A stretch of 64,000 nt of DNA from a virus (taxonomy: Duplodnaviria > Heunggongvirae > Uroviricota > Caudoviricetes): IMG/VR virus record IMGVR_UViG_2711768037_000005, positions 1-64,000 of that record. The stretch is one strand, 5' to 3'. The position numbers were made by a program, and so were the translations under genes. Below are positions 4,109 to 57,431 of this stretch, in pieces; positions within the stretch are counted from its first letter, which is position 1; each line of letters begins with the position of its first letter. Under the pieces are notes generated by a model. That model was not told the DNA's origin. It was given only the letters and a program-made list of their open reading frames with translations, and did not search any database.

Positions 4109-4166
4109 CCTGTTTCTGTATATAAATAATAAGTAACTTATTATTTATACGGAAGCAGGTCTTTTA
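4109..4166. terminator. large AT-rich hairpin with T-run; likely bidirectional terminator
   Basis: CCTGTTTCTGTATATAAAT ... ATTTATACGGAAGCAGG inverted repeat then TCTTTT; near-identical element at 50821-50893. Confidence 0.45.
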
Positions 4167-4267
4167 AAAGAAACCCACCAGAACAACTCCCTTCCGTTTT
4201 CACTTCCAAAAACTGACACCAGTCGCTATCATCCGCTCATTGCAATAAGTAAGTAACAACCTACCTG

Positions 4268-5017
4268 GTGAGCCACATGAGCCAAATCTTTTTCGATACC
4301 ATCGACAACGACCAGTACGACTTCATGACAGAGTGGAATACCGCTGTTATGGACAAGTGGGTCGCTGAAAACATTGGTTTGTCGCGCTGTAAAGACGAGG
4401 CTGAACTCTTCGAGACGAAGTGGTTTGATTACCGCGACATGCATCCTCTGATGGCCACCTGTCTTTTTACGGAGGCATACAAACGTCAGTACTCAAATAT
4501 CATGCTGACGCACGGTCGTGAACACTTTGAAACAGCTCCGTTCACCACCGGGTTAAAACGCCTGCCTTATCAGGAGTTGTCGACTGCTAATAAAACGTCG
4601 CTATGGAAAGCACGCCAGTTTGCGGATCGCTATTGCTGCTCATACGACTACTTTATCTCCACCGTTCTTTCCGCAGCTGCACGACGGCTGTGGGACAAGC
4701 TGCCGCGCCCACAGCATTTATGGCAGCCAGAGCTGGTTGAGATATTCGAAGAGAAATTAGCCAGACGCGCAACAACACGTCTAGATGATTCTCTGATTAG
4801 CTTTAAGCATATGGGAGACATGCAGTTCAACCCGATTCAGGAAAGCTATTTTGAGTGGATTCTGGAGCGTTTGCGCACTATCCCTCGCAGCAAGCGCATA
4901 CGCGCAATTTTCTCCGCTATCTGGTTAATGGAAATCGTTCCAGAACGCCTTATTTCCGCCCACTTTCCAGAAGAACTGGAAGAAGCACGGCGGTTTATTG
5001 ATCCCCTATCTAATTAA
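4268..5017 (+). CDS. hypothetical protein (position suggests a helicase-associated factor)
   Basis: ORF track; immediately upstream of the helicase gene. Confidence 0.45.
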   Translation: MSHMSQIFFDTIDNDQYDFMTEWNTAVMDKWVAENIGLSRCKDEAELFETKWFDYRDMHPLMATCLFTEAYKRQYSNIMLTHGREHFETAPFTTGLKRLPYQELSTANKTSLWKARQFADRYCCSYDYFISTVLSAAARRLWDKLPRPQHLWQPELVEIFEEKLARRATTRLDDSLISFKHMGDMQFNPIQESYFEWILERLRTIPRSKRIRAIFSAIWLMEIVPERLISAHFPEELEEARRFIDPLSN

Positions 5018-5060
5018 CTAATGCTAGAAAACAATTTGTTTAAAAAACAAAGGAAAGCAC

Positions 5061-54966: not shown

Positions 54967-55581
54967 ATGTTCGGGATGTCAATTACTCAGTCAAATGGTA
55001 ATGTGTGGATGAGTCCAGAATTTACACCGCAAAATTTGATTAATAGGGGGACAATGTCCACGTCTAAAGGTTCTGTTTTTAAGACTTCAATACCGTCAAA
55101 CAAATCATGTTTTTTCTTTATAAAAAGCAGTAATAAGGCGAATATGATGTTCGTTCATGAATTTAGAGATGGGTATAATGCTCTCAGACTGAATCAGGTT
55201 GGAGGAAACCCCGGAACGATAACAGTTTATGCTTTTTCTGATATGGTGTTACCACATTCAGGATATGGTATTGCCATGTATAATCGTGCAGGTGAAATGG
55301 TATATCACGGTGAGATGATGCCTCTTGATGCAGAGATTATCACTATTACAAATCCTCAATTTACCATAAATATGGGATACCCGTGTGCGATAATGCCTGC
55401 AATGGTTGGAGTATATAACTACAGACGAACACCTTACGACAGACCTGTATACGTAACAATGACAGGCGCAACGGGAAACCAAATATATAATGGTGAATGG
55501 TATTCAAGTAATGTTACATGGGATGTAAAAAAACTATATACAAATAAAGTCCTGGTTATAAATACATCCAAGTATGATTAG
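54967..55581 (+). CDS. hypothetical protein (AT-rich island)
   Basis: ATG at 54967 with GGGGA RBS (ORF-track 54907 is an upstream TTG extension); Asn/Thr/Tyr-rich, beta-rich composition. Confidence 0.4.
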   Translation: MFGMSITQSNGNVWMSPEFTPQNLINRGTMSTSKGSVFKTSIPSNKSCFFFIKSSNKANMMFVHEFRDGYNALRLNQVGGNPGTITVYAFSDMVLPHSGYGIAMYNRAGEMVYHGEMMPLDAEIITITNPQFTINMGYPCAIMPAMVGVYNYRRTPYDRPVYVTMTGATGNQIYNGEWYSSNVTWDVKKLYTNKVLVINTSKYD

Positions 55582-55684
55582 TCAATGCCTTTATTTTAAG
55601 TATTGCCTGTTAATTTCTATTTAGCACCTTTTTATTTTTGAAATAATTGCATCATTAAACAAATCATTTCTTAATGGTGCAATT

Positions 55685-57370
55685 ATGAATACAGCCCTTT
55701 CCATCATGGACGATGCCAGCTCAAACACTGCTATCGACTATCGACAGGAAATGAACGTCATCCACGAAATTGTGGCCGAGTGCGAGAAAGAGATCTCCTT
55801 CATGTATCAGGTACACGACTTCGTTTATGGCGATGAACGCCACAACATGATTAATCGCCTGCTTCGACTAAACCACCGACCAGATGAAGATCGCTCACGT
55901 TTGAATCGAGTCTGGCTGGATAACGTCGATCTGGAATGGGTGAAACAGAATATTTGGGCCGAGTACTGGAGGAAGGTCACGGACATGACTAACGTTTTGC
56001 TGATCATGCCAGCTTCCCGTCGAGATGAGTGGCGCGAGCAGTTTATAGAGGGCAAACAGGAAGTCACCAAAACTGACAGAACAGGCTACCAGATGAAGGT
56101 TAAAGAGTTCGTTGGTGTACCGGAGTTCAAAGCAGAAACGGTCATACCCACGATGCTTAATTTGCTGAATGACAGGCACAAATATCTCTCTGAGCGCGTG
56201 TATGGCTTGTTTAAGGCGCTGAGTCCTGCGCACAAGACAAATAAGACAAACGGTTTCAGCGAGCGGCTGATAATCGCTGACTGCATTTCTGATTTCTGGC
56301 GGGACAGCGTTAGCGTGAACTATCGCAAAGAGGACTACATCGACGATCTGCGTGTCTTGCTTCATTTCTTCGCGCACAAAGAATTTATTACCATCAACCG
56401 CACTGCTGAGGTGTTATCAGCTGCGTATCGGGCAAACGACTGCCAGACCGGTGACTGGATGAACGTCGATGGAAATCTGATGCGCGTGAAGATGTTCAAG
56501 AACGGCAACGTTCACTTTGAAATACATCCTGACGTGGCTTGGAAGTTGAATGAGGTGCTGGCTTACAGTATGCCTGCTGCAATCCCCGCGCCATGCCGAA
56601 CTGCGCCAAAAACACGGGCACCAAAGCAGTTCGGGTTAATCCAGAAGACGATCTCCGTGCCGGTTCGCACTGCGCTTCGTGACGGGCGATTAAGCAAAGA
56701 CAAAGGCGTATGGTACTTCTCTGATTCAGCTCTCCAGAAGTCGCAGATGGAAGAGCTTGAGCGCACACTGAGCTTCATTGGCGGCGTGCAGGAGAAAAAG
56801 CACTGGCAGTTCCCGTATGAGATCGACCATACGCTAAATACGATTGTGGCTACCGGTTTAATACCGGATACAAAATCACACCAGTTCTACCCTACCCCAC
56901 GCTTGATTGCTGAGTACGTTGCCAGAGCCACTGAATTGAAGCCTGGTGAGAAGCTGCTTGAGCCTCACGCCGGACGTGGGGATCTTCTGGCCTATATTAA
57001 CGCCGATCTGGAAGATGTTACCTGTATAGAAATCGCACCTCTCTTCGCTGATATCCTGCGTGGAAAAGGGTATACGAACACGATTTGCTGCGACTTCATA
57101 AAGTGGTCTGAGGACAACGCAGGTTATCAGTTCGACAAAATCGTTATGAACCCGCCGTACTCGCTTGGTCGTCATAGAGTGCACACACTGGCTGCGCTGG
57201 GGCATCTGAAAGTCGGCGGGCGTCTTGTAGCAGTATTGCCGGGCACTGCGCCAATACTGGACTGGATGACGATGGATAATTACGTTTATGCCAGAGGGAA
57301 GTCGTTTACCAACGAGTTTGAAGACACAGGGATCACAGTCAGCGTATACGTTTTCAAACGCGTTAAATAA
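55685..57370 (+). CDS. DNA amino-methyltransferase domain fused to a roughly 400-aa N-terminal domain of unknown function
   Basis: C-terminal motif I LEPHAGRGDLL and motif IV NPPYS (gamma-type order); no motif recognised in the N-terminal two-thirds. Confidence 0.6.
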   Translation: MNTALSIMDDASSNTAIDYRQEMNVIHEIVAECEKEISFMYQVHDFVYGDERHNMINRLLRLNHRPDEDRSRLNRVWLDNVDLEWVKQNIWAEYWRKVTDMTNVLLIMPASRRDEWREQFIEGKQEVTKTDRTGYQMKVKEFVGVPEFKAETVIPTMLNLLNDRHKYLSERVYGLFKALSPAHKTNKTNGFSERLIIADCISDFWRDSVSVNYRKEDYIDDLRVLLHFFAHKEFITINRTAEVLSAAYRANDCQTGDWMNVDGNLMRVKMFKNGNVHFEIHPDVAWKLNEVLAYSMPAAIPAPCRTAPKTRAPKQFGLIQKTISVPVRTALRDGRLSKDKGVWYFSDSALQKSQMEELERTLSFIGGVQEKKHWQFPYEIDHTLNTIVATGLIPDTKSHQFYPTPRLIAEYVARATELKPGEKLLEPHAGRGDLLAYINADLEDVTCIEIAPLFADILRGKGYTNTICCDFIKWSEDNAGYQFDKIVMNPPYSLGRHRVHTLAALGHLKVGGRLVAVLPGTAPILDWMTMDNYVYARGKSFTNEFEDTGITVSVYVFKRVK

Positions 57371-57431
57371 TAGGTAAATACTTACCTAATTTGTGTAAGA
57401 ATGTAGTTACTAAACGATAAGAGAAAAACAC

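Follow-up and report, generated by a model that had tools for sequence, protein, structure and literature searches.

Dispersed intergenic palindromes in an SSU5-like phage-plasmid of Escherichia coli as candidate operators of an XRE-type lysogeny repressor

Introduction

The C1 repressor of phage P1 reportedly has many operators dispersed over ~100 kb, each at a separate operon promoter. The P1 operators are asymmetric 17-bp sequences, and the repressor gene itself is under operator control. The stoperators of mycobacteriophages L5 and Bxb1, to which the repressor gp71 binds, are 13-bp sites, asymmetric and orientation-dependent. The conserved inverted repeats (CIRs) of phage phiC31, ~17 bp long, are said to be bound by the c repressor. 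The IncP plasmid RK2 has the KorB and KorA regulons; KorB is a ParB homologue that acts also at a distance. Described here is a family of dispersed palindromes in a 64,000-nucleotide stretch of viral DNA (positions 1 to 64,000 of IMG/VR record IMGVR_UViG_2711768037_000005; hereafter the window), together with the protein that may bind them. By its similarity to known elements the window is a portion of an SSU5-like phage-plasmid of E. coli.

SSU5-like phage-plasmids are common and bear resistance genes, and one of them is the backbone of the plague plasmid pMT1. Their lysis-lysogeny control appears undescribed. A 2024 review lists regulators for P1, N15, VP882 and GIL01 and none for the SSU5-like group (PMC11652158); no paper describing the motif was found in full-text searches, nor is it described in that review. 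The family was pointed out in an earlier sequence-only reading of the window, which took it for a regulon-wide operator set of one dimeric DNA-binding protein, possibly the XRE repressor.

The palindrome family

The sequence-only reading had counted at least 13 copies of an imperfect inverted repeat, placed in intergenic gaps ahead of operons. All 13 strings that it quoted are found where it located them, and the dispersed family is real. The pattern ATARGT-N8-ACYTAT occurs at 5 palindromic sites (10 strand hits) in the window, compared with 0.02 hits expected from 100 dinucleotide shuffles, and TARGT-N8-ACYTA occurs at 7 sites (14 strand hits), compared with 0.22 expected hits in such shuffles. 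A symmetric 22-bp weight matrix built from three genomes gave 29 hits in 19 clusters at a window threshold of at least 12 bits, against 0.17 in dinucleotide shuffles. Intergenic DNA makes up 10.6% of the window and holds 24 of the 29 hits; 0.14 matrix hits are expected in shuffled intergenic DNA. Rather than being as frequent in coding DNA or in shuffles, the motif is enriched intergenically and over shuffled sequence. The family is non-random and intergenic and stands ahead of most lytic transcription units (Table 1).

Written out, the 18-22 bp palindrome reads (A)ATARGTAAG-TA-CTTACYTAT(T), and the window has about 19 copies. Its consensus is better given as 18 bp, TARG-TAAG-YR-CTTA-CYTA, flanked by A/T. 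Matrix hits repeat at a register of +/-4 nt, and the palindrome therefore has a 4-bp (tetramer) unit structure. The core TAAGYRCTTA is found at exactly three window sites (16647, 28409 and 40642; 0.32 hits expected), the same three places, near 16645, 28410 and 40641, at which a recurring core had been noticed before.

The earlier list needs correction in both directions. Twelve of its 13 copies belong to the family; the one at 4128-4142 does not, its half-sites being 1 nt apart instead of 8, and it sits at the apex of another palindrome, ~50 bp long. About seven sites had been overlooked (64-85, 4244-4265, 32445-32466, 51222-51243, 45209-45230, the intragenic 17969-17990 and the weak 8555-8576), so that the family is larger than "at least 13". 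The copy in front of the XRE gene, at 16645-16658, is present, with the inner 14 bp only, and reaches 4.4 bits by the family matrix.

Conservation and change of letters across relatives

Counted as clustered matrix hits of at least 13 bits, the sites number 28 in phage Cyrano, 27 in SSU5, 28 in Klebsiella pJN2-26 and 18 in Yersinia pestis pMT1; the first three counts include, for each genome, 2-3 hits at apexes of that other, longer palindrome. A Klebsiella oxytoca plasmid has 39 raw matrix hits of at least 13 bits, 22 of them at least 19. Between Cyrano, SSU5 and Klebsiella the positions of the sites match, while the intergenic DNA around them does not. Among the relatives compared, SSU5, Klebsiella pJN2-26, the K. 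oxytoca plasmid and pMT1 have orthologous sites despite ~77-80% DNA identity. In the relatives, sites also occur beyond the gene classes of the window: at the TerL/portal junction, within the last part of the portal gene, behind the capsid gene and between tail genes. In Y. pestis pMT (NC_008118.1) the 18 high-scoring sites all lie at 2-78 kb, in the phage-derived part, and the XRE promoter and its operator are kept. The caf1 capsule operon of pMT1 is inserted beside the integrase/XRE module.

Plasmids of Acinetobacter baumannii and Cupriavidus metallidurans have the gene order of the window. They carry about 27 and at least 25 copies, respectively, of a tetramer-palindrome of equal design, with TCAG units instead of TAAG. 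The variant palindrome has the letters TCAGTCAG..CTGACTGA, written in full as ATCAGTCAGTACTGACTGAT in Acinetobacter and AGTCAGTCA-N4-TGACTGACT in Cupriavidus, and one TCAG-type copy in Acinetobacter lies at the TerL/portal junction. The palindromes co-evolve with the lineage. The change of letters is concerted at all positions, which argues for a sequence-specific reader that changed with its sites. A third operator specificity may exist in an E. coli draft contig with a variant XRE protein, P0032, whose recognition helix reads KYQNQVSF instead of KNANNLSL. In the 20-kb P0032 locus the left half-sites are rich in TATG units, for example AGTATGTATGTATTTACTTACT. This lineage stands apart, at ~76-81% DNA identity, and neither the plasmid collection nor that of complete E. 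coli genomes contains it; its co-variation of recognition helix and half-sites is suggestive, weakly so.

Sites and promoters

The promoters and transcription starts given here are sequence predictions obtained by scans. The best sigma-70-like promoter of the window, TTGAAA-17-TATTAT (28398-28426), has a family site in its spacer and -10, and two further promoters, TTTACA-17-TAGTAT (32429-32457) and TTGCCA-17-AAAAAT (50157-50185), overlap or abut family sites. Four sites are followed 5-8 nt downstream by an extended -10 (TGTAAGAAT or TGTATAAGAT), which is kept in SSU5 and Klebsiella as the flanks drift and which places the site centre near -30. Measured from the predicted start, the offsets of the sites run from about -30 through about -19 to about +8.

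In the AT-rich enteric genomes, -10 hexamers at the edges of the sites were rejected as promoter evidence: they occur at offsets -14/+7 on both strands and are intrinsic to the palindrome. The GC-rich Cupriavidus element was therefore used as a test. It is 61% GC, and strong -10 hexamers on its coding strand number only 44. A strong coding-strand -10 is found within 32 nt of 17 of its 47 loosely defined sites, compared with 2% of random positions, so that the family is promoter-associated there as well. Upstream of the site centre, -10s on the coding strand outnumber those on the opposite strand by 12 to 4; most of those sites thus lie over the predicted start. As judged from predicted promoters, this placement and the variability of the offset accord with repression and speak against an activator box at a fixed position.

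The XRE-type gene and its own site

Within the window the candidate repressor is a 128-aa protein of the XRE (Cro/CI) helix-turn-helix (HTH) type. The sequence-only reading had called it the only HTH regulator, in agreement with a scan of 39 window proteins in which no other DNA-binding domain was detected. Its AlphaFold2 (AF2) model has a predicted local distance difference test score (pLDDT) of 84-88 for residues 10-90 and is predicted to be a five-helix Cro/CI-type HTH fold. The best Foldseek matches of the model in the PDB are all HTH repressors, namely Stl of a staphylococcal pathogenicity island (SaPI), C.AhdI, 434 Cro and P22 c2. The root-mean-square deviation is 1.5 Å for C.AhdI, 1.6 Å for P22 c2 and 1.9 Å for 434 Cro, the last two over ~62 residues, and the target-normalised TM-score reaches up to 0.80. 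A sequence search of the protein against the PDB gave no hit at E<=1. A segment GYKN(A/P)NNLSLIKSGKIPLP is nearly invariant in the enteric homologues, 56-78% identical, that share the motif.

The XRE family is found only on phage-plasmid contigs of ~100-116 kb, and the gene is present in 996 PLSDB plasmids from Klebsiella, Escherichia, Enterobacter, Salmonella, Yersinia and Acinetobacter. In LF82 lysogens, expression of the Cyrano orthologue, CYRAN_45, exceeds the prophage background 10-fold, and ciprofloxacin induces Cyrano (PMC9928086). The XRE promoter, on the minus strand, has the -35 TTTACA at 16687-16682 and the -10 TAATAT at 16665-16660 with a spacing of 16. In four elements (the E. coli window, Cyrano, Klebsiella pJN2-26 and pMT1) this -10 is closely followed by a family site, and the promoter together with the site is conserved in Klebsiella and pMT1. 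Upstream of XRE there is a TCAG-type copy in Acinetobacter, and motif copies or half-sites are present in K. oxytoca and Cupriavidus.

SSU5 lacks the integrase, the XRE gene and the small divergent gene (SSU5 about 42600-42760 corresponds to window about 12800-17170) and has kept its sites intact. None of 822 related plasmids shares the SSU5 junction at this deletion, and identity to its closest relatives is 92-96%. The loss is accordingly recent, too recent for the sites to have decayed. With an immunity region that seems to have been deleted not long ago, SSU5 fits a repressor-less phage capable of lytic growth only. The objection that XRE is not the binder because SSU5 lacks it was not accepted, the junction being unique among the 822 relatives.

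Probable operators of one dimeric protein

The palindromes are rather probably the operators of one dimeric protein encoded by the phage-plasmid, and the most likely binder among the candidates is the XRE lysogeny repressor. XRE is the best candidate because of its Cro/CI-like fold, the restriction of its family to these elements, its expression in lysogens and the weak site at its own promoter. One subunit would read each half of the 18-22 bp site (ATARGTAAG / CTTACYTAT). The sites would overlap the sigma-70-type promoters of nearly all lytic units, those for replication, recombination, nucleotide metabolism and lysis and, outside the window, the head and tail genes, covering the -35/spacer ahead of an extended -10, the -10 itself or the transcription start. 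One pool of repressor could then stop RNA polymerase at about 25 places during plasmid maintenance. The degenerate site over the start of the repressor's own transcript would provide negative autoregulation, and promoter-less sites such as those at the TerL/portal junction and in the CobT-like interior might act as roadblocks. The orthologous positions, the change of letters with the architecture kept and the overlap with -10 elements are all consistent with the regulon-wide operator set first suggested from the letters. The suggestion that XRE is the protein in question is consistent with all the evidence, and XRE is a candidate binder.

Several results weigh against this reading. The HTH_19 match of the XRE protein in Pfam (E=0.0015, 18.9 bits) is below the curated cut-off of 30.2 bits, and no Foldseek match reaches E<=0.001. 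Lysogen-expressed genes are without sites in 11 of 14 cases, which agrees with the model but is not significantly different from chance. The lineage comparisons are confounded, as any co-inherited regulator would co-vary with the motif equally; a mosaic genome with a swapped XRE was searched for and none was found. A recognition code in which Asn in the enteric proteins and Arg in Acinetobacter would account for the A-to-C change in the tetramer was rejected: the Cupriavidus XRE has the TCAG-type motif without that Arg. In the AT-rich genomes the -10-like hexamers at the site edges belong to the palindrome itself, on both strands. Several sites, among them those at the TerL/portal junction and within the CobT-like gene, have no recognisable promoter nearby and may be roadblocks or have another role. 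Finally, SSU5 without XRE keeps perfect sites, which a recent deletion explains and which another binder would fit too.

Such a binder could be the 70-aa product of the gene at 16863-17075, which is divergent from XRE and may encode a Cro-like partner; the FljA-like regulator (CYRAN_114 / SSU5_121), whose gene lies outside the window; or a ParB-like protein working as KorB does in RK2. This alternative is unlikely without being far-fetched. It would account directly for the about 27 intact sites of XRE-less SSU5, and SSU5_121 and the ParB-like genes are present in every relative. In Cyrano (105106) and Klebsiella (34774) the ParB-like operon has a site immediately before it, and the small divergent gene is a conserved neighbour of XRE, shared by the E. 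coli window, Klebsiella, Acinetobacter, Cupriavidus and pMT1. However, the SSU5 deletion is unique and young enough, given relatives at 92-96% identity, for its sites to have persisted; the promoter region of the FljA-like gene has no family site, and the 70-aa protein has no detectable DNA-binding domain. The annotation of the K. oxytoca plasmid names XRE as the sole HTH regulator, and XRE alone among the candidates is reported as expressed in lysogens.

A second alternative is that the palindrome is a positive promoter element, at which a phage activator binds and recruits host RNA polymerase to promoters lacking a -35. Elements of this kind are the T4 MotA box at -30 and the inverted repeat of the P1 Lpa late promoter. 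Just this arrangement is seen at four sites: there is no -35, and a conserved extended -10 follows at nearly constant spacing, which puts the site centre at about -30. Sigma-70-like promoters are also rarer in the window than expected, 18, 19 and 20 per 20 kb compared with 34, 29 and 32 in shuffles (57 against about 96). The offset to the -10 is not fixed across the family, however, as sites lie over the -35/spacer, the -10 or the start. Most Cupriavidus sites are downstream of the -10, from where an activator would not be expected to work; at the XRE promoter the site extends over the start; and early-type and late-type genes are both covered. Activation is accordingly held to be improbable.

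The palindrome might instead act as RNA or as a cruciform, as a terminator, RNase processing site, mRNA stabiliser or translational operator. It is symmetric in consensus and lies between co-directional genes, often beside true terminator hairpins (28368-28388, 40663-40684 and 45278-45296), and some sites abut start codons (32445, 4244 and 50183). Yet compensatory covariation between the arms is absent. Over 53 sites, the mirrored positions 5/18 agree in 25 cases against 23.7 expected (Fisher p=0.77) and positions 10/13 in 25 against 29.3 expected. Agreement is no higher than under independence, which speaks against selection for base pairing. The half-sites vary independently, as for a dimer and unlike a hairpin, which bears out the dimeric reading first given to the family. 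It is the letters of the arms themselves that are conserved, over about 25 sites and several genera, and the sites of Acinetobacter and Cupriavidus all have the TCAG unit in place of TAAG. The arms are A/T-rich and would form stems without a U-tract; terminator scans of the window returned no family site among the terminator-like hits, and Rfam gave tRNAs only and no family match for the palindrome. The element is read as double-stranded sequence by a protein, one half per subunit, and is not folded; a role as RNA or cruciform has very little in its favour.

Chance composition or a small mobile repeat, of the repetitive extragenic palindrome (REP) or miniature inverted-repeat transposable element (MITE) kind, can be dismissed with near certainty: although the sequence is A/T-rich in A/T-rich intergenic DNA, it is enriched at least 100-fold relative to dinucleotide-shuffled sequence, be it the window or only its intergenic DNA, which rules out composition, and only the 22-bp core is common to the copies, whose unique flanks and orthologous positions across genera rule out a mobile repeat.

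The source element and neighbouring features

Bases 15000-25000 of the window are 96-98% identical to Escherichia phages CMS-2020a and PhiR41_1, 94% identical to phage Cyrano (pLF82) and ~77-80% identical to Salmonella phage SSU5 and Klebsiella phage-plasmids. The gene order, taken from annotated relatives, is holin/lysis, ParA, helicase, primase, ligase, tRNAs, integrase and a divergent HTH gene, followed by CobT/CobS-like genes, DnaE, the gp32-like single-stranded DNA-binding protein (SSB), RecA, RepA, SbcCD, NrdAB, ThyX, Dam and others. From this order the window spans the non-structural half of the element, and transcription is nearly all on the + strand.

Table 1. Positions of the palindrome-family sites and of the candidate repressor gene in the window
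Feature	Position	Context	Matrix score	Orthologues and remarks
Site AATAGGTAATCATATAACTATA	64..85	before holin gene (98..466)	15.6	before holin also in Cyrano 26656, SSU5 27473, Klebsiella 69441
Site AATAAGTAAGTAACAACCTACC	4244..4265	directly upstream of gene 4268..5017, head of helicase/primase block	22.1	Cyrano 31295, SSU5 33599, Klebsiella 74982
Site AATAAGTAGATGGTTACTTATC	7678..7699	5 nt, then conserved extended -10 TGTAAGAAT (7705-7713)	21.3	extended -10 retained in Cyrano and SSU5, flanks divergent
Weak/half site GATAGGTAAGCACAAGATTATT	8555..8576	before gene 8590..9060	11.3	Cyrano 35606 (scores 13.6)
Site GATAAGTGTTTACTTACTTATC	11200..11221	followed by TGTATAAGAT; upstream of tRNA cluster (11958-12782)	23.7	Cyrano 38251, SSU5 41772, Klebsiella 83365
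XRE / Cro-CI-type HTH gene, 128 aa, candidate repressor	16229..16615	minus strand		
Weak site GGTAAGTGCTTACC	16645..16658	directly downstream of XRE promoter, over predicted transcription start	4.4	
Intragenic site	17969..17990	inside CobT-like gene (17175..19283)	15.1	
Site CGATAAGTAACTACTTACGATAG, N4-spaced halves	19296..19321	before CobS-like/DnaE block	12.6	Cyrano 45264, SSU5 45125
Site AATAAGTAAGTACTGATCTATC	24883..24904	before gp32-like SSB (Pfam match) / exonuclease / RecA block	25.1	in all relatives
Site AATATATAAGCACTTACTTATT	28403..28424	in spacer and -10 of TTGAAA-17-TATTAT (28398-28426); just past terminator 28368-28388		
Site TATAAGTTAGTATCTACCTATC	32445..32466	overlaps TTTACA-17-TAGTAT (32429-32457); abuts ATG at 32467		arrangement kept in Klebsiella 104804
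Site AATAGGTATATACTTACTTATA	35952..35973	before SbcD/SbcC block	25.4	orthologues found
Site GATAGGTAAGTGCTTATCTATT	40636..40657	before nrdA; hairpin 40663-40684 next	27.2	
Weaker site TAATTGTAGGTGATTATCTATT	45209..45230	end of MazG-like gene	13.1	Cyrano 72457, SSU5 72356
Site AATGAATAAGTGGTTACTTATC	45346..45367	before thyX	19.4	
Site AATAGGTAATCACTTACCTATT	50183..50204	directly after TTGCCA-17-AAAAAT (50157-50185, TG-extended); 11 nt before Dam methylase ATG		
Site GATAGATAAGTACAAACTATTC	51222..51243	start of 590-bp non-coding stretch	18.0	Cyrano 78476, SSU5 78708
Site AGTAAGTAAGTGTTTACTCATC	52397..52418	after RNase H gene	20.6	
Site AATAGGTAAATACTTACCTAAT	57369..57390	followed by extended -10 TGTAAGAAT; before Ead/Ea22 block	25.3	extended -10 conserved in SSU5 and Klebsiella

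The CobT-like gene holds an internal family site in four lineages (window 17969-17990, SSU5 43660, Klebsiella 91931 and pMT1 63260), the sequences being non-identical; it may be an internal promoter/operator or a roadblock. The 590-bp stretch at 51166-51753 has a family site at its start and no open reading frame. Its Cyrano counterpart contains the tiny gene CYRAN_81, expressed 12-fold above background in lysogens, and the stretch may encode a small RNA. Upstream of repA (33770-34984, minus strand), repeated GGATCTAT(C) units at 34985-35185 look like plasmid-origin iterons. No site of the operator family is present in this region, and none upstream of parA. Between the tRNA cluster and the integrase, window 13009-14922 encodes a 637-aa protein with SASA (sialate O-acetylesterase), DUF1737 and DUF6645 domains. 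This gene is probably accessory cargo, because no counterpart is annotated at the matching Cyrano locus.

Two other kinds of palindrome were seen. AAACAA-N-TTGTTT occurs at 3003-3015, 5029-5041, 17143-17155, 29557-29569, 43080-43092, 53296-53308, 54025-54037 and other places, usually with a -10-like (T)ATAAGA ahead. Most of the seven good copies stand 17-36 nt before a start codon, the parA copy being the 36-nt case and the nrdB copy lying further back; helicase, CobT-like and other genes also have one. Exact copies number 11-17 per enteric genome, with 1 in the Acinetobacter relative and 0 in the Cupriavidus relative. They may serve a second regulator as its operators, or else act as a translational operator. 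Two ~50-bp near-perfect palindromes, CCTG(T/C)TTCTGTATATAAATAA...TATACGGAAGCAGG, are located at about 4107-4157, just downstream of the parA operon, and at about 50834-50886. Both are kept in Cyrano, SSU5 and Klebsiella, and a matching string, TATAAATAATAAGTAACTTATT, recurs at the end of the linear Cyrano record. These could be a centromere, a terminator or a packaging-related element.

Comparison with known systems

It is conceivable, and put forward tentatively, that SSU5-type phage-plasmids at large (~1,000 plasmids, including Y. pestis pMT1 and those like S. Typhi pHCM2) are silenced by one network of ~25 tetramer palindromes, that the specificity classes, at least two in number (TAAG in the Enterobacterales, TCAG in Acinetobacter and Cupriavidus), define immunity groups, and that the promoter-less and intragenic copies are stoperator-like roadblocks. 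The operator consensus and the candidate repressor offer a direct handle for experiments on induction and on immunity groups. Promoters and transcription units of these genomes can be annotated with them, and the sites are a simple mark of those genes of pMT1 and pHCM2 that are still under prophage control.

The likeness to P1 would lie in a plasmid-prophage silenced by one repressor through scattered operators, whereas the sites here are 18-22 bp palindromes and the candidate protein is a small one of the Cro/CI HTH type. As with the stoperators of L5 and Bxb1, there are about 25-30 copies in short intergenic gaps, at early and late genes, often touching stop codons, and some are promoter-less, as for an elongation block. 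Unlike L5 stoperators, the sites here are symmetric, with the better inner half on either side, and many lie over clear promoters. The phiC31 CIRs likewise are found at the repressor's own promoter and in many intergenic regions, but sequence, host and repressor family are other ones, and the phiC31 repeats serve the early region where those here extend to the late operon too. The predicted fold of the candidate resembles that of the lambdoid repressors 434 and P22 c2 (PDB 2cro, 3jxb), whose sites are also palindromic, 14-20 bp long, read by a dimer and promoter-overlapping; lambdoid phages, however, have 6 operators in two clusters together with antitermination cascades, in contrast to about 25 single operators spread genome-wide. 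RK2 offers the parallel of a plasmid-wide set of about 12 identical palindromic operators at many operons, and differs in its regulator, KorB being a ParB homologue with action at a distance as well.

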